64,000 nt of DNA from an uncultured Gammaproteobacteria bacterium (GTDB lineage Bacteria; Patescibacteriota; Microgenomatia; Levybacterales; UBA12049), in the NCBI GenBank assembly GCA_964610465.1, contig CAZSWA010000002.1, positions 13,423 to 77,422 of the forward strand, read 5' to 3'. Made by a program: the position numbers and the translations under genes. Within the stretch, counting starts at the first letter, position 1, and each line of letters starts with the position of its first letter. Shown here piece by piece: positions 846 to 63,753 of this stretch. The notes beneath the pieces are model-generated. The model searched no databases. It was not told the origin of the DNA and saw only the letters and a program-made list of their open reading frames with translations.

Positions 846-1817
846 ATGGAGAATTTAAAATATCTTTCTGTAATTTTAGCGTTATTTACCTTACTGCTTA
901 CTGCAGATCAGGTAGTTCCAGCGTATGCTACAAATAATAATAACGATGATGCCAAGGCTGAACAAAAAGTTGACATGCCTCAAATAGACTTCTCAAAGTT
1001 TGATAAAGAAGTAAAAGGAGCTCAAGACCTAAAAGACAACAATGTCCATATCGACGTAAATCTTGTTACCAAAGGAAATGACGATAAAAACCAAAATAAC
1101 GGTAAAGATAAAAATCCAGGTGGTTGTGACCAAAATGGTTCAACAGGTGATAAAAACGGTGCACCATGCAATCCTGGGAAAAATAATGCTTCACCAGAAG
1201 GATGCTTACATGGAGAACCTGATTGTACAAAAACACCTACACCTAAGCCAACTGATTGTCCACCGAAAGCAACTCCAACACCAACTTATAAACCAAAACC
1301 AACTGAAAAACCAACAATAACACCAAAACCGACTTCTACTCCAAAGCCGACTGATTGCCCGCCAAAGGTCACACCAACTCCTACTCATAAGCCAACGGAA
1401 ACTCCTACACCAAAACCAACTCATACGCCAACACCAACTGTAACTCCAACTGCTACACCAACAACATTGCCAACTGTTACACCAACTCCTACACAAGAAG
1501 TGGAAACCCAAACACCTATCGTAATAAATAACAACAATACCAATAATAATAATGTCACGATAAACAACGACTTTACCAATACCAACGAAAACACCAATAC
1601 AAATAACAACAATAATTCAGTTGAGGAAACTCCTACACAAACTCCAACTCCAACTCCACAAGGAAAGGTTTTGGGGGTATCAACTGAAAATCTTCCAAAC
1701 ACAGGTAATTTCTTACCAAATCTTGGAAAACTCTTCCAAGCATGGGCAGCATTTGCATTAGGATTAATAGCAATAACTCGTATACGAAAAAACAAAACAT
1801 TGGCAGAGGCGAGATAA
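846..1817 (+). CDS. LPXTG-anchored surface protein with Thr/Pro-rich tandem repeats and an Asn-rich low-complexity segment
   Basis: N-terminal signal peptide. Repeats of the form PKPTDCPPK(A/V)TPTPT(Y/H)KP. C-terminal LPNTG followed by a hydrophobic stretch and a basic tail (RIRKNK), which is a classic sortase sorting signal. Confidence 0.75.
   Translation: MENLKYLSVILALFTLLLTADQVVPAYATNNNNDDAKAEQKVDMPQIDFSKFDKEVKGAQDLKDNNVHIDVNLVTKGNDDKNQNNGKDKNPGGCDQNGSTGDKNGAPCNPGKNNASPEGCLHGEPDCTKTPTPKPTDCPPKATPTPTYKPKPTEKPTITPKPTSTPKPTDCPPKVTPTPTHKPTETPTPKPTHTPTPTVTPTATPTTLPTVTPTPTQEVETQTPIVINNNNTNNNNVTINNDFTNTNENTNTNNNNNSVEETPTQTPTPTPQGKVLGVSTENLPNTGNFLPNLGKLFQAWAAFALGLIAITRIRKNKTLAEAR
1240..1500 (+). 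repeat. Imperfect in-frame tandem nucleotide repeats encoding the PT-rich linker of the LPXTG protein
   Basis: A repeated ccaactgattg(t/c)cc(a/g)cc(g/a)aa(a/g)g..acaccaac unit is seen directly. Spurious ORFs arise on both strands here. Confidence 0.5.
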
Positions 1818-26517: not shown

Positions 26518-26600
26518 GGGCGAGTGGCGGAATGGTATACGCGGTAGTCTCAAAAACTACTAGTCGCAAGGCTGTGTGGGTTCGACTCCCTCCTCGCCCA
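26518..26600 (+). tRNA. tRNA-Leu (anticodon CAA), type II with a long variable arm
   Basis: Acceptor GGGCGAG/CTCGCCC plus discriminator A. Anticodon stem GTAGT/ACTAC with loop CTCAAAA. Long variable arm. GGTTCGACTCC T-loop. No encoded CCA. Confidence 0.8.
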
Positions 26601-27051
26601 CAACCAGGTTACCTGTCAGTTTATAGGCTTCATTTAATTGAAAAATTGACTTCATTTTATTAGTTATAGTGTTAGTTCGATACTTCAACTCATCATAAGT
26701 AGGTTTTGTCTTAAAAATAGCACCAAATAGTACTGCATTCTTGATAGGATCAGACCCATTTAGCAATGTATCTTCAAGATGTTCGAGAAAATAAAAGCAG
26801 CGATTTATGACAGTCTGAACATCTGATTGTTCAACATCCTTTCTTAGTTTCTCTTCTTGAATTTGCATTCTTTCTAACACAAGCTCCTCTAGCTTTTGTT
26901 CCTGTGCTCGGATTGCATGTATAGATGTAAGTCTCGGTAATGTTTCATTGATTAGTTGTTCTTCAGATTCAATATCTTTGAGTTTTTGTGTAAGAGATAT
27001 ACTGTCTTCGATTACTCTTCCTCTTTTCTTTTGCCAATCAGCAATTACCAA
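26560..27051 (-). CDS. Hypothetical coiled-coil protein (163 aa). The 3' end overlaps the tRNA-Leu gene.
   Basis: ORF only. The last ~14 codons are antisense to the tRNA. Confidence 0.35.
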   Translation of the reverse strand: MVIADWQKKRGRVIEDSISLTQKLKDIESEEQLINETLPRLTSIHAIRAQEQKLEELVLERMQIQEEKLRKDVEQSDVQTVINRCFYFLEHLEDTLLNGSDPIKNAVLFGAIFKTKPTYDELKYRTNTITNKMKSIFQLNEAYKLTGNLVVGEEGVEPTQPCD

Positions 27052-52970: not shown

Positions 52971-53132
52971 TTATCTAAAAAGCAAGAGTAAAAGTGCAAC
53001 TACTACAAATCCTCCTCCAAGCACTATATAAAACAAATCTTTCTCATGCTTTGTCCAATGATGACTTCTGCTTGCTGCATGTGATGTATGATGTCTTGCG
53101 ACATGTCTGTGTGAAACTTTTTTTCTTTTCAA
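52971..53132 (-). CDS. Small His-rich single-TM protein (~53 aa, TTG start). Below the ORF-track threshold.
   Basis: Strong SD AAAGGAGGTGA 8 nt before TTG. The sequence reads ..VSHRHVARHHTSHAASRSHHW.. then LFYIVLGGGFVVVALLLLLF (YjcZ-like GGGF hydrophobic tail). Confidence 0.35.
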   Translation of the reverse strand: MKRKKVSHRHVARHHTSHAASRSHHWTKHEKDLFYIVLGGGFVVVALLLLLFR

Positions 53133-53140
53133 TCTGATCA

Positions 53141-53230
53141 CCTCCTTTAAAATCTCTTGATTTTAAAGGATCCTCACGGAGGCCTGCGGCCTGAGAACCG
53201 CAGTTCGAAGGACCCTTCCTCGATAGTTTT
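53141..53230 (-). ncRNA. GC-rich structured leader/ncRNA candidate. An 11-bp hairpin partly sequesters the SD of the small His-rich protein, and a cluster of short GC hairpins lies upstream.
   Basis: CCTTTAAAATC-aaga-GATTTTAAAGG overlaps AAAGGAGG. Hairpins CCTC-CGT-GAGG, CTGCGG..CCGCAG and GAAGG-GTC-CTTC. The ~60% GC patch sits in an AT-rich spacer. Confidence 0.3.
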
Positions 53231-53364
53231 CTTAAATTCTAATATTAAGTACTATTACAACATCCGAGACTTGCATTGCTCTTTTCACCACAAAAATAAT
53301 TGGTCTTTATCTATGATACAGTATTTTAAGATGGGCTTGTCAAGAGGAAAAATAGATGAGTAAA

Positions 53365-57808: not shown

Positions 57809-58054
57809 TTAGTCGTGTGCTACAAATGGCAATAATGCAAGATGGCGGCCATATTTTACTGCGAGGGTGAGTTGTTTTTGATGATGACTGCAGAGACCAT
57901 TTACTTGCCTGTTTACAATCTTGCCTCTATCGGTAACAAACCTTTGCAAAACTGAAATATCAGCATAGTTTGGCTGTGATTTCTCAGTGCAGAAAAAGCA
58001 CGTCTTTGGCGCTACTGTTTTTTTTCTTTTTATAACTTTTCTTTCTTTTGCCAT
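57809..58054 (-). CDS. rpsR: Ribosomal protein S18
   Basis: CFFC..D.L..F....GKI..R..GL conserved core. Confidence 0.9.
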   Translation of the reverse strand: MAKERKVIKRKKTVAPKTCFFCTEKSQPNYADISVLQRFVTDRGKIVNRQVNGLCSHHQKQLTLAVKYGRHLALLPFVAHD

Positions 58055-58065
58055 ATAATTACTTT

Positions 58066-58554
58066 CTAAAAAGGTATATCATCAGGAGCTACTTCTTCCC
58101 CTCCTGTACTCGCTGGTTCTTCGTGTGTTTCTTCTTTTTCTTCCTTTGCAGGTGCTTTGGCTTTTGGTTTGGCAGGTTCACTTGCTCTTTCTGTACCATT
58201 GGCAGCTGCAGTTCCTTGGTTTTTGTTATCAAGAAGTATCATATCATCAATCACAACTTCTGTAAGTGATTTTTGTTGTCCATCCTGTGCTGTCCAACTT
58301 CTGGTAGAAAGTCTTCCTTCTACATATACTTTTCTGCCTTTTACCAAAAACTGACTGCAAAGCTCTGCTAATTTATTCCAGGCAACAATTCTATGAAACT
58401 CTGTATCTTCCTTTTTCTCTCCGGAATCAGTTGTCCAGGAACGGTTGGTTGCCAAACCAAATGTACAGACCGCAGTACCACTTGGCGTATATCTAAGCTC
58501 TGGGTCTCTTGTCAAATTTCCTATCAACTGTACTCTGTTTAAACTTCGTGCCAT
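58066..58554 (-). CDS. ssb: Single-stranded DNA-binding protein
   Basis: OB-fold N-domain, Gly/Pro-rich tail and C-terminal DDIPF. Confidence 0.9.
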   Translation of the reverse strand: MARSLNRVQLIGNLTRDPELRYTPSGTAVCTFGLATNRSWTTDSGEKKEDTEFHRIVAWNKLAELCSQFLVKGRKVYVEGRLSTRSWTAQDGQQKSLTEVVIDDMILLDNKNQGTAAANGTERASEPAKPKAKAPAKEEKEETHEEPASTGGEEVAPDDIPF

Positions 58555-58559
58555 ACCTT

Positions 58560-58838
58560 TTACTTCGTCCTCAAAAGCAAATGCCGTAATACTTTTTCAT
58601 TTCTATGTAATTTTTGTTCAACATCAGATGGGATAACCTTTTCTGTTTCCAATTTCATAAGGTGATAAAATCCGGCAAGCTCTTTTTTAATAGAGTACGC
58701 AAGCGGTTTTTGTCCCCACTCTTCTTCTTTGGTAATTTTTATATCTTTAAGCGATTCTTTGACACTTGTCAAAAGCTTTTTTCGCTCAATTTCAGACAGT
58801 GAAGGCTTAAGAACCAAAACTAAATCATATAAACGCAT
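58560..58838 (-). CDS. rpsF: Ribosomal protein S6
   Basis: MRLYDLVLVL N-terminus. Conserved rpsF-ssb-rpsR order. Confidence 0.9.
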   Translation of the reverse strand: MRLYDLVLVLKPSLSEIERKKLLTSVKESLKDIKITKEEEWGQKPLAYSIKKELAGFYHLMKLETEKVIPSDVEQKLHRNEKVLRHLLLRTK

Positions 58839-58914
58839 AGTAGTATCGTATAATTGTACTCAAATCTGCCTCAAAAAGCAAGAGATATATTATTTTTAAG
58901 CTGTGAACAAAAAA

Positions 58915-59355
58915 AATGTAAGCCTTTTTCCCACGAAAAAACCCCTGGAACTTCAAATGCGCTTATACAAGCATTGCGGTGACGCCATTGTCACCGCCGT
59001 GTACAAATCGCATCCCTGCGAAATTCCAAGGGAGCACGCCATTGTGCCCCCAATAATCATGATGGGGTTAATCCCACCAGTTCCTTCGATAGTCTTTCGA
59101 TGGACCCGTAGGTCCTGTATGAAGAATCCACGGCATTCTGTCTCGCCAATCTGGCTGCCTCCATGCATGTTTTATGCAGAAAAAGAATCCTTTCGCTACT
59201 AGACTAACTGCCATGAAGACTACAGGTACAACTGCCCCTTGCATGCCGCGTTCCTTTCGTTTCTGGCGGGACGGTTCGCAGCACCTTACTGCAAATCCAT
59301 CTTTGCCAGACCAAGTCTCGATTGAAGCGGGATTTGGTCTGGCAAGCCAGAAAAG
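58915..59355. ncRNA. GC-rich (~50%) ~440-nt island with no coherent ORF and many nested inverted repeats. Candidate structured RNA gene; class unresolved, strand unknown.
   Basis: Four overlapping 60-100 aa ORFs in different frames. Stems GCCAGACCAA..TTGGTCTGGC, GCCGTG..CACGGC and others. Shares TTCCT(T/C)CGATAGT(C/T)TTTC with the 53141-53230 element. Confidence 0.35.
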
Positions 59356-59450
59356 GTTTATATTGGGGTACACATGTAAAAGTGCTTATCTAAACAATAC
59401 CAGAAAACACAGCAAAAGTCAATATTATAGGTCTTTATTTTAACCTTAGA

Positions 59451-61397
59451 CTACGGTTTTTCTTTGTAGGTTTTTATAAATGATATTGCACTCTTACTCT
59501 CTAAACCTGCTTTTTTTGTTGCTTCCTCAAGTGGCATAAGCATTCTCTCAAGAATTTCAGGATGTTTTATCAAGGATATTTTTTTGTACGACTCTCGCGC
59601 TTTGGTAATATGATAATGTATGATGTCACACACTTCATTGATAATGTTATACCAAAATATTTCCTGAAGTTTGGGTAATGCAATATCAATTGCACCTGTT
59701 TTATTTTTTGTCTTTGATGCTCTGTATTGTGTGAGAATAAGTGCATTTACAGGATTTATATGTCCTTTTTTCAAGTCACTTTCCCAATCATGTGCATCAT
59801 CATTGAGTTGCCGTGCTATCAAGTAATGTCTAAAAAACGAAAGTAAGTTTTGAATTTCTGAAGAATCTTTTGTATAACCTAACGCAAAAAGTATTGCCAA
59901 AGGTCCCAATGCATGACCTATGGATTTATCAACAAGTATCGTGTAATTACTAAAGTCAGGTAACGGGTATTTCAAGATATCATCTTTCTCTTTTATTCTG
60001 CAATGGATAATTTCCCAACTATTGGCTGCATCTATCGTATCCATGCTGGTTTGAAAAAGCGTAAGAAACTCATTGTTTTTAGGAAGAATCGTGATGAAAA
60101 TTCTTGTCACCTCACGAAGTGAAATATTTGCAATTGATAATGTTCTTATGTCTCCTTCTTCATCCAAAAAATTATCATATATAGTATAGGCAAGCCAGCC
60201 AAATACGTTGGCACATCCTAGTTCAATAAGAAATACTTCATGTATTTTTTTTCCTTTATCTCCCAGACTCTGATTAAAATAATATGGCAAAAGAGGAATT
60301 TGTTTTCCTTTCTCTCCTTCCAATATATCTTTGAGCTGCAGTTTCATTTCTTCTTTTATACTTATATCAAATGGCTTAAATGTCTCTTCAACCTTTGTAA
60401 TAACTTTTTTATAGATTTTAATCTGTTGTTGAGACATATTTTCCTGTTTCCTGTTTTTCTTCTGGAGCGTTGTATATTTGTAGAGTGCTTCAAGACAAAA
60501 CGCAGTAGTCATTGCGTATGATCCAGAATAATACGGCACTCCATCTTTACTTGGGTCCAAATAAAATGGACAAGCATCCCAACTCCCATCCTTTTTTTGT
60601 TTTTTTAAAAGATATGAGAGGCAGTCTTCCAAACCTTCCAGCGGAACATCAAGATTGATAAGTGCCAACAGTGCAAGTGCAGTATATAAAGGATTTTCCC
60701 ACATGTTGTTTTTATCTTTTTCTTTTAAGAGCATCGTCTTTAATTTCTCTCTATATCTCCCTTTATAAAGTCTGGAAATGAAATAAATAATTGGATAAAA
60801 AGACGGATAATAGGGAGATTTGATATTCCCACTTTTAATTTTAGATTCTATAAACGTTACAAGATTTGGTAACTCTATTGCAAAAAGAGAAAGAAAGTAC
60901 GCGATATTGCTATTGACTGCCAAATCAACATCCTGCCATTTTCCGTCATCCTTATTAACCAGCCAAGTGCGGTATGGTCCTCCTTCTTTTTCTTCAACTG
61001 AAGTTAATACCATTACAATTTTTGCGAGGACCTCTCCATCAATTATCTTGTTATCAATATGTAATAATGCAGCGACTGCACAAAATGTATCATCTAAATC
61101 ATCAGGATATCGCATATCTAACGATTCTTTTGATCCTCTTGCCCAATAATTAAAAGACCAGTGTTTGCTTTTTTGTTTTAATAAGAATTTTGCAGCTCTA
61201 GATTTTATTGTATCTGCAGGTATGTCTTTTAAGGCAAGAAGGATAAGAGATGTCGTAAAAGTCGTATGATACGTAAGAGCACTTTTAAAATTGAAAGGGT
61301 CAGGTGATGAAAGACTAAGAAAACCTCCGTCTTTTTGTTGTTGTGATAAGATATAGCTTATTCCTCTTTCAAGTACTTTCTTGAAATCAGACACCAT
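59451..61397 (-). CDS. Large protein with an N-terminal class II terpene-cyclase-like (squalene-hopene-cyclase-type alpha/alpha toroid) domain and a C-terminal helical domain bearing acidic motifs
   Basis: QW-type repeats QQKDGGF and QKKDGSWD. DxDDT motif in PDDLDDTFCAVAAL. C-terminal YDNFLDEEGD and LNDDAHDWESD, similar to the DDxxD and NSE/DTE motifs of class I terpene synthases. Confidence 0.45.
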   Translation of the reverse strand: MVSDFKKVLERGISYILSQQQKDGGFLSLSSPDPFNFKSALTYHTTFTTSLILLALKDIPADTIKSRAAKFLLKQKSKHWSFNYWARGSKESLDMRYPDDLDDTFCAVAALLHIDNKIIDGEVLAKIVMVLTSVEEKEGGPYRTWLVNKDDGKWQDVDLAVNSNIAYFLSLFAIELPNLVTFIESKIKSGNIKSPYYPSFYPIIYFISRLYKGRYREKLKTMLLKEKDKNNMWENPLYTALALLALINLDVPLEGLEDCLSYLLKKQKKDGSWDACPFYLDPSKDGVPYYSGSYAMTTAFCLEALYKYTTLQKKNRKQENMSQQQIKIYKKVITKVEETFKPFDISIKEEMKLQLKDILEGEKGKQIPLLPYYFNQSLGDKGKKIHEVFLIELGCANVFGWLAYTIYDNFLDEEGDIRTLSIANISLREVTRIFITILPKNNEFLTLFQTSMDTIDAANSWEIIHCRIKEKDDILKYPLPDFSNYTILVDKSIGHALGPLAILFALGYTKDSSEIQNLLSFFRHYLIARQLNDDAHDWESDLKKGHINPVNALILTQYRASKTKNKTGAIDIALPKLQEIFWYNIINEVCDIIHYHITKARESYKKISLIKHPEILERMLMPLEEATKKAGLESKSAISFIKTYKEKP

Positions 61398-61434
61398 TAC
61401 TTAATACTAAAAAGGAACTCCTGTAAAATCAAGA

Positions 61435-62847
61435 CTACTTCCCTTTTCTCAAAGGAATGAGTATGGTAAAAAGCGTTCCGTTTTCTTTTCCTGTTTCTAC
61501 ATTGATTGTTCCGTTAAATTCCTTATCAATAATATATTTACAAATAGAAAGACCAATACCTGTATTACTGTCAAAACTTTTTGTCGTAAAGAATGGCTCA
61601 AAAATTTTATCAAGATATTTTTTTTCAATACCTTCACCATAATCCTGAACCGTTAATTGTATTGTATATTTCAGTTTTTGTGCAGTAATTTCAATTTTCT
61701 TTTCTTTTTTCCTTTTCAAATGTTCGTATGAATCAATAGCGTTTGAGATAAGATTCGTGATAACTTGATTAAACTTTAATTGATTTCCATAGAGTGTAAT
61801 AGAAGACGTTTTGTCGAGATGTATCTGGATATTTTCTTCTTTTGCTTTATAATGAAACATATCAATCACATCCTGAATTTCATCTGTTACTGAAAATCGC
61901 TTTCTTAGTTCGTGACTTTGCATTTGTTTCCTTGCAGTTTTCACAAAGTCCTCAAGCTTTTTAAGTCCTATTGTTGCACGATGCAGTAACACTTTTCTTT
62001 CATCCAATTGATTTCCTGATATTTCTTCAGCTTGCGAAGACAGTTGATTTAAATTAAGAGAGACTAAGTTGAGGGGATTTGCCAAATCATGAAAAAGTCC
62101 TGATGCAAGTCGACCAAACTCTACAAAACGGTAGAGTTGTGCAATCTTTTCCGCTTGCAATTGTTTTAATTCTTGAGTACGTTTTTCAACGGTAACTTCG
62201 AGTAAATCTCTTTGTTTTTTGAGCGCTGCTTCCGAAACTCTGGCTCTTTTCAATGCTTTCTCACCTTCAATATTGAAGAGCCAGGAAATAAGGGCAATAA
62301 TAAGCAATGTAATATATCTCACTATTGTGTCTGCCAAATTATATGCTTGCTTTTTCCAATATAAATCGGGTCTGTATATATGATTGATTTGCAAATATGA
62401 GATTGTAATAAAGGTAACTCCTGTAAGAGCTGTAGCGGTGAATATCGATTTTGTATCAATCAATATTCCTGACATAACAATAATAAGCGCATACAGGAGA
62501 AGAACCTGAGGTACGTCTGCTCCCCATCGTGCAGAAGTATAGAAAGTAGTCAAAAATAAAAAGGCGATAAAAATTGTTGCGGCTATTTTTGATTTTTTAA
62601 GTCTGGATAATATTAGGAGGATACAAAAAAATGAAAAAAATGCAAAGGTAAACACTGGTAGTAACCCATGATAAGGTGTTGAAGTAAAATAGAAAAACAA
62701 ATTTTGTCCGAAAGCGACAAATGTCAAAATAATGATGGAAACCAGCAAAATATTAAGGATAAATTCTCGACGGGCAGTATCTTTATCTTTTGAACGGGGC
62801 AGAATAATATAATGTAATAAAAAAGTAGACGTTGTTTTAAAGAACAT
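61435..62847 (-). CDS. Sensor histidine kinase with a multi-TM N-terminal sensor domain
   Basis: H-box LFHDLANPL, N-box NLISNAIDS and G-boxes DYGEGI and GIGLSI. Confidence 0.85.
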   Translation of the reverse strand: MFFKTTSTFLLHYIILPRSKDKDTARREFILNILLVSIIILTFVAFGQNLFFYFTSTPYHGLLPVFTFAFFSFFCILLILSRLKKSKIAATIFIAFLFLTTFYTSARWGADVPQVLLLYALIIVMSGILIDTKSIFTATALTGVTFITISYLQINHIYRPDLYWKKQAYNLADTIVRYITLLIIALISWLFNIEGEKALKRARVSEAALKKQRDLLEVTVEKRTQELKQLQAEKIAQLYRFVEFGRLASGLFHDLANPLNLVSLNLNQLSSQAEEISGNQLDERKVLLHRATIGLKKLEDFVKTARKQMQSHELRKRFSVTDEIQDVIDMFHYKAKEENIQIHLDKTSSITLYGNQLKFNQVITNLISNAIDSYEHLKRKKEKKIEITAQKLKYTIQLTVQDYGEGIEKKYLDKIFEPFFTTKSFDSNTGIGLSICKYIIDKEFNGTINVETGKENGTLFTILIPLRKGK

Positions 62848-63081
62848 TGCAAAATCAATAATGTTGAGCTATTATACTATTCCTAAGGAAAGCACACAAT
62901 AAAGGTTATTTTATCGTGTGCTCTCTAAGTCTAAAACTCACTTGACCTATACATTACCCCATGGATCAAGCGCGTTTGTTTTTGAAGTAAGGAGTGCTTT
63001 TACACTCTTTTTACTTCTTGCAGATTTATTTACAAGAAGTGCCTTCATTATTTCACTCATTTATATCACCCCCTTTCCTCT

Positions 63082-63753
63082 CTATCTAGTCGCTAGCTTA
63101 TATCCAAATCCATGAGCTGTCTTTATAAGTTTTTTATGAAATGGCTTATCTATTTTTTCCCGCAGATTTCTGATATGCACATCTATAAAATTAGTTGCAG
63201 CTTCTACGTCACTGTCCCATACATGATCTAAAATCATTTCACGGGTGACTACCTGTCCTTTGTTCCTCATGAGATATTCAAGTATATAAAGTTCTTTTTT
63301 CCGAATAGGAATTACCTTGTTATTTCTTTTGACAACTTTTGTACTTAAATCAAGTGTCAAATCACCAACTGATAAGATATTTGAAGGCAAAGTAGATAGT
63401 GAACGACGGCTAAGTGCATTGATTCGCGCAATAAGTTCTTCCATTGCAAAAGGTTTGATAAGATAATCATCAGCACCTGAATCAAGCGCTTGTACTTTTC
63501 TTCGTATTTCCGATTGTCCAGTCAGCATAAGAATAGGAGTTGATAGTCCTTCCTTCCGAATTTTTCGGCATATATCAATCCCATTGGCATCAGAAAGAAT
63601 CATATCTATGACAATGACATCATATATTTCATTTTGCATTTTCTTCTCGCTTTCTTTTGCACTTAATGCAATATCAACTAGAAAATGTTTAGAAAGTCCA
63701 TCTCGTATAGTAAATGCGGTAACTTTATCATCTTCTATAACAAGTAGTTTCAT
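63082..63753 (-). CDS. OmpR-family response regulator
   Basis: Receiver domain with DMILSD phospho-acceptor context, and a winged-helix trans_reg_C domain. Confidence 0.9.
   Translation of the reverse strand: MKLLVIEDDKVTAFTIRDGLSKHFLVDIALSAKESEKKMQNEIYDVIVIDMILSDANGIDICRKIRKEGLSTPILMLTGQSEIRRKVQALDSGADDYLIKPFAMEELIARINALSRRSLSTLPSNILSVGDLTLDLSTKVVKRNNKVIPIRKKELYILEYLMRNKGQVVTREMILDHVWDSDVEAATNFIDVHIRNLREKIDKPFHKKLIKTAHGFGYKLATR

Follow-up and report, generated by a model that had tools for sequence, protein, structure and literature searches.

The 64-kb stretch of DNA analysed here (the window; contig CAZSWA010000002.1), whose host belongs to Candidatus Levybacteria (Microgenomates, Candidate Phyla Radiation (CPR)/Patescibacteria), contains a GC-rich island at 58915-59370, in the gap between a gene for a cyclase-like protein and the genes rpsF-ssb-rpsR. 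All neighbouring genes are on the minus strand (Table 1). The island most likely encodes a non-coding RNA of ~450 nt that is read from the same strand and belongs to no catalogued family. Its 3' part carries hairpins that resemble the sites bound by ANTAR antiterminator proteins, which gives the RNA a likeness to the EutX/Rli55 "protein sponge" RNAs.

The GC content of the region is 0.47-0.51 in 200-nt windows over 58900-59399 against a mean of 0.358 for the whole window, and that of the island itself is ~0.49. The island is the longest run of 100-nt windows at GC >= 0.50 in the 64 kb. Only four open reading frames (ORFs) of 71-101 aa are present, which overlap one another on both strands and include two with a GTG start. 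None of them matches Pfam, a search of 5.8 billion proteins with all six translated frames joined together gave no relative at E <= 10, and gene callers run on two independent Logan assemblies left the gap empty. An earlier note on this DNA, made from the sequence by inspection, had described a GC-rich tract beside rpsF that lacks a coherent coding frame, and both parts of this description are borne out. The same note had also suggested that the tract might be a nest of a GC-rich repeat family, as it seemed to share a 14-nt motif with an element at 53141-53230. This motif is only a 12/14 match (59096-59109 against 53204-53217), of which ~0.5 would be expected by chance by our own estimate, and no second copy of the island was found in the window. 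A diversity-generating retroelement (DGR) or other repeat was rejected on the same ground, since the island occurs only once. The existence of ORFs of 99 and 101 aa and the 12/14 match could be taken to speak for a protein-coding gene that has decayed or gone unrecognised, or for a dispersed family of GC-rich repeats. Given that these ORFs overlap on opposite strands, have no protein relatives in any of the six frames and are skipped by gene callers, and that the shared motif is at chance level in a single-copy island, this explanation is extremely improbable and can be regarded as effectively refuted.

Folding statistics set the island apart from the rest of the window. The full-length fold of the minus strand has a minimum free energy (MFE) of -187.8 kcal/mol and a z-score of -5.75, compared with -157.2 kcal/mol and -5.24 for the plus strand. 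When the 5' 325 nt are folded alone, the minus strand reaches -126.4 kcal/mol (z -6.77) and the plus strand a z of -2.99, and the 127-nt 3' module alone has a z of -5.66 on the minus strand. Across 92 background windows of 450 nt the mean z is -0.44 (sd 1.35), and the one further outlier lies partly within the island. No other region of the 64 kb thus stands out strongly by its folding, and there is a clear preference of the fold for the minus strand. These z-scores, the strand asymmetry, an intrinsic terminator and the lack of protein homologues support the core idea of a structured RNA gene rather than a coding one, and the island is very probably a structured RNA. The inverted repeats noticed earlier are also present in the sequence, and GCCAGACCAA (59306-59315) and TTGGTCTGGC (59336-59345) do pair as a long hairpin. 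GCCGTG and CACGGC both exist as well, but the predicted fold pairs CACGGC/GCCGUG with GCGGCAU (59246-59252) and not with 59006-59011.

Table 1. Coordinates of the predicted RNA and its elements, the neighbouring genes and the metagenomic leaders used for comparison.
Feature	Position	Strand	Basis or remark
OmpR-type response regulator	63082-63753	-	
Histidine kinase	61435-62847	-	
Cyclase-like alpha/alpha-toroid protein, 648 aa	59451-61397	-	stop at 59451
Promoter candidate TTGACT-17-TGgTATTGT	59422..59394	-	consensus scan; weak
Promoter candidate TTGCTG-16-TTAGAT	59415..59388	-	consensus scan; weak; overlaps the TTGACT candidate
Predicted whole transcript, ~450 nt	58936..59387	-	fold z-scores, strand asymmetry, terminator; 3' end at U6 tract, 5' end uncertain
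5' domain, ~320-nt multi-branch fold closed by helix H1	59048..59376	-	MFE and z of separate fold
H1, CCCCAAUA with UAUUGGGG	59368-59361 with 59055-59048	-	pair probabilities 0.80-0.95
Long hairpin GCCAGACCAA/TTGGTCTGGC, 7-nt CUUCAAU loop	59303..59345	-	sequence and folds
Sub-domain (~135 nt) closed by 13-bp long-range helix	59122..59255	-	predicted folds
Hairpin GGACC-UACG-GGUCC, cUACGg tetraloop	59102..59115	-	sequence and folds
Hairpin UGGUGGG-AUUAAC-CCCAUCA, then UGAUUAUU	59050..59079	-	terminator scan; 7-bp hairpin, weak terminator-like
P1 (P1-ext), GGGGGCAC-AAUGGC-GUGCUCCC	59030..59051	-	fold; hexaloop, A1, G4, AC/GU closing pairs
Pm, UCGC-AGGGAU-GCGA	59008..59021	-	hexaloop scan; A1, G4, P2-type GC/GC closing pairs
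P2, GCGGUGAC-AAUGGC-GUCACCGC	58976..58997	-	second P1-type hexaloop; pair probabilities 0.99-1.0
Intrinsic terminator, ~90-nt imperfect hairpin (59032-58942) and U6 (58941-58936)	58936..59032	-	folds, base-pair probabilities 0.93-1.0
rpsF promoter TTGCTT-17-TACAAT	58853..58881	-	outside the RNA; -10 ends 14 nt before the ATG
rpsF	58560-58838	-	ATG at 58838
ssb	58066-58554	-	
rpsR	57809-58054	-	
262-aa protein and CtpB-like protease	further neighbours past rpsR	-	
Metagenomic ANTAR-type leaders	L117:878-950(-), L121:1523-1573(+), L127:643-700(-), L128:2950-2996(+), L129:1144-1201(+)		JGI metagenomes

The predicted 5' domain is a multi-branch fold whose closing helix, H1, can be extended by UGUGUA/GCACA and AGCAC/GUGCU pairing. 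The long hairpin, the loop of which resembles a T-loop by eye, shares its branch with a second hairpin. In the ~135-nt sub-domain, the 13-bp long-range helix is predicted to form between AGGAAC-GCGGCAU (59255-59243) and AUGCCGUG-GAUUCU (59136-59122); it is flanked by GAAAG and by ACAGA, which precedes its 3' strand. The cUACGg tetraloop is present in the minus-strand sense only, and a further branch is predicted as a UCGA-AAGACUA-UCGA hairpin. Just before P1, the domain ends in the weak terminator-like site, and the finding of one such site against 1.1 expected in shuffled sequences is not significant on its own.

The 3' module (~125 nt, 59056-58930) is built around the intrinsic terminator, the base of which, CCCUUGGAAUUUCG/UGAAGUUCCAGGGG (CCCUUGG.../...CCAGGGG), abuts the U6 tract 97 nt upstream of the rpsF ATG. 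P1 and P2 both fold with 6-nt loops and Pm is a third such hairpin, and the three loops (AAUGGC in P1 and P2, AGGGAU in Pm) all have A at position 1 and G at position 4. P1 (GCAC-AAUGGC-GUGC) and P2 (GGUGAC-AAUGGC-GUCACC) have the 10-mer ACAAUGGCGU in common, which occurs as two exact copies in the window, both in the island, and was not found in 488 kb of other Levybacteria DNA. Outside this core the stems of the two hairpins differ in a compensatory manner (GCAC/GUGC vs UGAC/GUCA). The linkers measure 8 nt between P1-ext and Pm, 10 nt between Pm and P2, and 32 nt between P1-ext and P2.

The three hairpins stand in different relations to the terminator. P2, extended to 8 bp, forms the apex of the terminator hairpin and in the model would be a stably displayed extra site unable to compete with termination. 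Pm has both its strands inside the terminator 5' half, so that the two are mutually exclusive; it is predicted for nascent transcripts of 60-90 nt and gives way as soon as the terminator 3' strand has been made, with energies for the Pm fold and the terminator fold of -46.2 vs -55.1 kcal/mol in the module and -178.6 vs -187.8 kcal/mol at full length. P1-ext lends its 3' strand to the three terminal C-G pairs of the terminator (59032-59030). In the full-length fold, an extended H1 takes both P1 strands and the probability of P1 is 0.05, while forcing P1-ext costs 1.2 kcal/mol (-186.6 vs -187.8 kcal/mol) and removes the three terminator C-G pairs that touch the U-tract. As modelled, H1, P1-ext and the terminator base would be in three-way competition, in the manner of a riboswitch expression platform.

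What gives the island an identity is a feature that the earlier note had missed, namely two hexaloop hairpins with the same AC-AAUGGC-GU sequence. The ANTAR antiterminator RNA motif consists of two hexaloop hairpins with A1 and G4 in the loops, has sequence-specific AC/GU closing pairs on P1 and embeds its second hexaloop in a terminator (Ramesh et al. 2012, PMC3369931; Walshe et al. 2022, PMC8934654). Its published consensus is SYAC-AAHGRH-GUDB for P1 and RRGY-AAHGDV-GCYY for P2 (supplement, Ramesh et al. 2012, PMC3369931). Examples of P1 listed there are AAACAC-AAUGGC-GUGUUU of eutP, which is the validated and crystallised EutV site of E. faecalis, GUAC-AAUGGC-GUAU of eutG, GCC-AAUGGC-GGC of nasF, and GCAC-AAUGGC-GUGC in the predicted hits 014 and 034 (PMC3369931 supplement). 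According to a crystal structure, a single hexaloop with three closing pairs is the recognised unit. The island P1 agrees with the consensus throughout (14/14 positions), is identical to the P1 of hits 014 and 034, and shares its core, CAC-AAUGGC-GUG, with E. faecalis eutP. Pm, when compared with the P2 consensus, keeps the GC/GC closing pairs, A1 and G4 but differs from it in the outer stem and at three positions of the loop (2, 3 and 6).

A second line of evidence comes from metagenomes. A scan with CACAATGGCGTG-N25-55-ACAATGGCGT returned 28 loci, which are mostly tandem repeats or coding sequence, but five of them (L117, L121, L127, L128 and L129) have one architecture and fold as canonical ANTAR attenuators. 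In these leaders, a promoter is followed by (G)CAC-AAUGGC-GUG(C), a linker of 23-49 nt and GAC-AAUGGC-GUC, the terminator using the 3' half of this latter hairpin (GGCGUCUG...) as its 5' strand. A GAF+ANTAR gene (PF03861, E 1e-18 to 1e-20) immediately precedes L117 and L128, and L117, L128 and L129 lie upstream of glutamate-synthase-like genes. Both hairpin sequences of the five leaders, (G)CAC-AAUGGC-GUG(C) and GAC-AAUGGC-GUC, are identical to those of P1 and P2 in the island and occur in the same order, and the 42-nt spacing between the 12-mers in the island falls within their range of 23-49 nt. The arrangement differs in that the second hairpin of the island tops the terminator, so that binding there could not alone prevent termination. 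Based on these identities, the hairpins of the island are probably ANTAR-type recognition sites.

The five leaders are an ANTAR attenuator sub-type in their own right, with both hairpins of P1 type and a linker far longer than the 5-12 nt of eut leaders; none of them matches an Rfam family at E <= 0.01. When viral contigs were scanned with four motifs, all matches proved to be tandem repeats, iteron-like repeats or phage genes with no relation to the island. Most of the viral matches to the island motif come from a conserved phage gene family in IMG/VR (L085-L111, e.g. L085:6096-6145) with ...GGCACAATGGCGTCCCA...CAGACAATGGCGTGAT... and exactly 30 nt between the 10-mers, which looks coding and is unrelated to the RNA.

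The closest precedents for the whole RNA are EutX of Enterococcus faecalis and Rli55 of Listeria monocytogenes. These are stand-alone RNAs of ~450 nt in full length and ~200 nt in a short form, in which an adenosylcobalamin (AdoCbl) aptamer is followed by an ANTAR site without terminator coupling, and the full-length RNA sequesters active EutV (PMC5821096, PMC8079631). By analogy, the island RNA is best, if tentatively, read as an EutX/Rli55-like riboregulator that acts as a sponge for an ANTAR protein. A dimeric ANTAR antiterminator would be bound, and so titrated, through P1 and P2, and the 5' domain would be the sensing or gating part, since its closing helix and 5' end pair with both P1 strands. 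In the "closed" fold P1 would be hidden and the terminator complete; in the "open" fold, within 1.2 kcal/mol of the closed one, P1 would be displayed and three terminator base pairs removed. Furthermore, the P1 and Pm pair would make the RNA's own terminator sensitive to the ANTAR protein. Expression of the RNA, its start, the partner protein, its sequestration and any ligand are presumed in this proposal.

The island resembles EutX and Rli55 in being a predicted ~450-nt non-coding RNA with a large structured 5' domain followed by ANTAR hexaloops, in having a eut-type EutV site as P1 core, and in holding P2, and P1 in the open fold, on stable stems that do not compete with a downstream terminator strand. 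The terminator-like site between its two parts could possibly be the counterpart of the end of the short form, although as a site it is no better than chance. In contrast to EutX and Rli55, the 5' domain is neither an AdoCbl riboswitch nor a member of any Rfam family, no eut locus or ANTAR gene is near, a third hexaloop (Pm) lies inside the RNA's own terminator, and the host is a CPR bacterium. Display of P1 is also proposed to be gated by helix competition, instead of or beside premature termination. EutX and Rli55 have their own promoter and terminator; the island terminator is clear, whereas its promoter candidates score 7-10 bits compared with 15.4 bits for rpsF.

Several observations weigh against the riboregulator proposal. 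Two verified ANTAR domains used as tblastn and phmmer queries found no ANTAR protein in the 64-kb window of this roughly 1-Mb genome, the 488 kb from other Levybacteria loci likewise showed no ANTAR gene, and no literature report of ANTAR in Patescibacteria was found. The P1-P2 spacing of 32 nt is outside the eut range, in which linkers of 5-12 nt are tolerated and those of 3 or 14 nt abolish function/antitermination, though the five GAF-ANTAR-type leaders have 23-49 nt. ANTAR sites usually, though not obligatorily, lie in leaders or intergenic regions of nitrogen-metabolism genes, the usual ANTAR regulon, and the genes flanking the island (cyclase-like, rpsF-ssb-rpsR) are not of this kind. 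The energy differences of ~1 kcal/mol between the alternative folds are within the error of the folding model. The 5' domain is of no known RNA class, its role as a "sensor" is proposed by analogy, and no cobalamin, AdoCbl-variant or other riboswitch matched it at E <= 10. The island is known as a single sequence, 100% identical in two assemblies from other samples and without a homologue, so that none of the helices is backed by covariation. Moreover, the 5' end of the RNA is placed by the weak promoter matches alone. With a position weight matrix from 76 Levybacteria rpsF promoters, the two candidates (59388..59422) score 7.3 and 10.0 bits and rank ~200 and ~71 in the window, which gives them no statistical support, and because they are weak the RNA may be a 3' untranslated region of the cyclase-like gene or operon.

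The main rival to the riboregulator is a cis-acting ANTAR attenuator, in which P1 and Pm form the antiterminator and the protein stabilises Pm, blocks the terminator and allows read-through into rpsF-ssb-rpsR. Transcription would come from the cyclase-like operon or the island's own promoter, and the 5' domain would be a long leader. P1 and Pm do reproduce canonical attenuator geometry in the predicted folds: a P1-type hairpin is followed after 8 nt, within the 5-12 nt of eut, by a hexaloop closed by GC/GC in the terminator 5' half, which forms in nascent prefixes and is then displaced. The island is also on the same strand as rpsF, with its U-tract a short way upstream of the ATG. Compared with the known dual-hexaloop leaders (eutP/G/S/A, nasF and amiE; Ramesh et al. 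2012), the island has the same A1/G4 hexaloops, the P1 AC/GU closing pairs and a second hexaloop mutually exclusive with the terminator. It differs from them in the 320-nt structured domain in place of a short leader, in the extra P1-type hairpin at the terminator apex and in the Pm loop, in which AGGGAU departs from AAHGDV at three positions. P2 and the 320-nt domain are left without an explanation by this rival.

The genes downstream provide a further argument against attenuation. The rpsF promoter, which lies past the island terminator, scores 15.4 bits and is the 11th best of all sites in the 64 kb. A cTTGC-N17/18-(TG)nTAnnAT element with the -10 ending 6-14 nt before the rpsF ATG is found in 76 of 80 relatives, and from this position the rpsF mRNA appears to be leaderless or nearly so throughout the Levybacteria lineage. 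A read-through mRNA without a Shine-Dalgarno sequence would presumably translate S6 poorly, and read-through would add little S6 to what this strong conserved promoter provides. In addition, none of the >80 relatives has a leader at this place, and a ribosomal-protein/SSB operon, unlike a nitrogen-metabolism operon, is not a known ANTAR target. A cis-acting attenuator is therefore considered unlikely. The idea that the island is an rpsF leader serving S6:S18 autoregulation was rejected, because rpsF retains its own conserved, near-leaderless promoter downstream of the island terminator. As an observation apart from the island, the combination of a conserved promoter and no Shine-Dalgarno sequence characterises rpsF in ~76 Levybacteria genomes (loci L002-L084, ~50 nt upstream of the ATG).

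Known RNA classes were compared with the island at several levels of stringency. At gathering thresholds, the one Rfam 15 match in the window is a tRNA-Leu. Sub-regions of 901 nt and 463 nt, searched with lax filters up to E <= 10, returned only chance-level matches to microRNAs (miRNAs), small nucleolar RNAs (snoRNAs) and long non-coding RNAs (lncRNAs). The RNase P RNA, transfer-messenger RNA (tmRNA), signal recognition particle (SRP) RNA and intron that had been suggested for the tract thus find no match, and the Rfam search proposed as a check gave no family. ARAGORN reported only the tRNA-Leu at 26518 and, with no Rfam tmRNA match either, tmRNA was rejected; 6S RNA and SRP RNA had no match at E <= 10 on the 463-nt query. 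Mapping by eye to RNase P types A and B, tmRNA, SRP domain IV, the T-box antiterminator, the cobalamin B12 box and ykkC gave short resemblances but no consistent topology.

RNase P RNA called for closer attention, given that the RNase P RNAs of CPR bacteria are known to score too low for the Rfam thresholds (Lui et al. 2021, PMC8172020), and its topology was checked by hand for this reason. The island is like bacterial RNase P RNAs, including the diverged CPR forms, in its size, its GC-richness and its independent location, and the long-range helix beside GAAAG and ACAGA has a superficial likeness to P4/J2-4. RNase P RNA was rejected because there is no RF00010 or RF00011 match at E <= 10 and because CR-I (GAGGAAAGUCC) and CR-V (ACAGAAnCCGGCUUA) are absent, with only the GAAAG and ACAGA fragments present. 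The topology does not fit either: the P4-like helix encloses ~105 nt, too few for the S-domain plus P15-P18, and three hairpins lie between it and the closing helix, against the P1-P4 order.

These comparisons bear on another alternative, which is a structured RNA of unrelated function, such as a lineage-specific ribonucleoprotein scaffold or a very divergent housekeeping RNA, e.g. a diverged CPR RNase P RNA. Its AAUGGC hairpins would serve another partner or tertiary contacts, and the likeness to ANTAR sites would be coincidental or convergent. A stand-alone, GC-rich and strongly folding element of ~450 nt at a synteny break is often what a housekeeping RNA gene looks like, CPR RNase P RNAs are known to evade Rfam thresholds, a long-range helix has GAAAG and ACAGA at its flanks, and no ANTAR gene is in view in the window or the other Levybacteria loci. 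Against this stand the lack of any RNase P, tmRNA, SRP or 6S match, a topology incompatible with RNase P, and the two exact matches of 12-14 nt to validated or consensus ANTAR hairpins in the order of the five leaders, which are very unlikely by chance. Such an RNA is an improbable explanation on balance.

The comparison with relatives covered 80 GTDB Levybacteria rpsF loci, three loci of the cyclase-like gene (~50% identity) and three Logan contigs that carry the nearest S6 homologues (70-74% identity). The S6 homologues and the 80 loci bear the Levybacteria names by which the host is assigned. Sequence beyond the window was obtained for only ~1 kb, past one of its ends. The best identities found, 74% for S6 and 51% for the cyclase-like protein, indicate that the collections hold no close relative. 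No comparable island was found in the 80 GTDB loci and the three Logan contigs, where just a short gap without GC enrichment precedes rpsF. A search of the relatives' loci with nhmmer recovered only the island itself, Rfam gave nothing on 20 of these loci, and blastn of the island against phage and plasmid collections gave no match. In three relatives other genes directly follow the response regulator/kinase/cyclase-like block. As relatives lack the island at either flanking gene block, it sits at a synteny break.

This isolated position raises the question of a non-functional relic, i.e. horizontally acquired DNA of higher GC, such as an ANTAR-regulated leader of another phylum, that is no longer used. 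The GC content of 0.49 vs 0.36 for the genome, the location exactly at a synteny break, the absence from all relatives examined and the lack of an ANTAR partner in view are all compatible with such an origin. A relic would not retain an excess of -50 kcal/mol of minus-strand-specific structure over 450 nt. Nor would it keep its terminator intact, its alternative pairings in balance and, with compensatory changes in their stems, two hairpins that match the consensus perfectly. The architecture of the island, with P2 not coupled to the terminator, is also unlike that of donor-type leaders, and the island shows no trace of GAF-ANTAR or other protein sequence. For these reasons a relic is judged quite unlikely.

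CPR/Patescibacteria have tiny genomes, and their regulation is poorly understood. What is new here is an RNA of the ANTAR-target or EutX-like type, if read correctly, in an unexpected lineage and with an orphan 320-nt domain. Sensor RNAs that sequester regulatory proteins have very few examples, and for ANTAR the EutX/Rli55 pair is the only one known to us or found. Another such design, in which the sensing domain is far larger and unrelated, would mean that the principle is modular and occurs more widely, and would present RNA biologists with an orphan 320-nt structured domain to study. The island would, as far as we are aware, be the first indication of ANTAR-type post-initiation control in CPR/Patescibacteria. 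There is a low but real chance that the 320-nt 5' domain is a new sensing RNA class (riboswitch-like, protein-sensing or tRNA-sensing) that gates the display of ANTAR hairpins. If so, the island RNA would be the first ANTAR-linked riboregulator in the CPR and a second, independent case of the "sensor plus protein sponge" of EutX/Rli55 with a different input. More generally, the analysis shows that short protein-recognition hairpins can help to decode, in part, GC-rich islands of CPR genomes that are negative in Rfam.

Other parts of the window are of separate interest. The response regulator, the histidine kinase and the ~650-aa cyclase-like protein (59451-63753, minus strand; also L113-L115) form a conserved Patescibacteria gene block, beyond which the genes vary from relative to relative. 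The ~650-aa protein has weak matches to prenyltransferase/SHC/TED alpha-alpha-toroids and to AstC-like_C (PF28380), and its >850 homologues at E <= 1e-10 are all without a name. The tRNA-Leu(CAA) at 26518-26601 (plus strand), with a long variable arm, is the sole Rfam/ARAGORN match in the 64 kb. The ORF 846-1817 codes for a 323-aa protein with a low-complexity segment rich in Pro, Thr and Lys (PTxKPT-like), which stems from imperfect repeats with an 18-nt period at 1229-1680 (plus strand). A GC-rich structured leader at 53125-53245 (minus strand; -37.9 kcal/mol, z -3.4), with no Rfam match and no relation to the island, ends in the strong Shine-Dalgarno sequence AAAGGAGGUGAUC and lies upstream of the gene (52971-53141) for a His/Arg-rich protein of 56 aa that has a hydrophobic tail.

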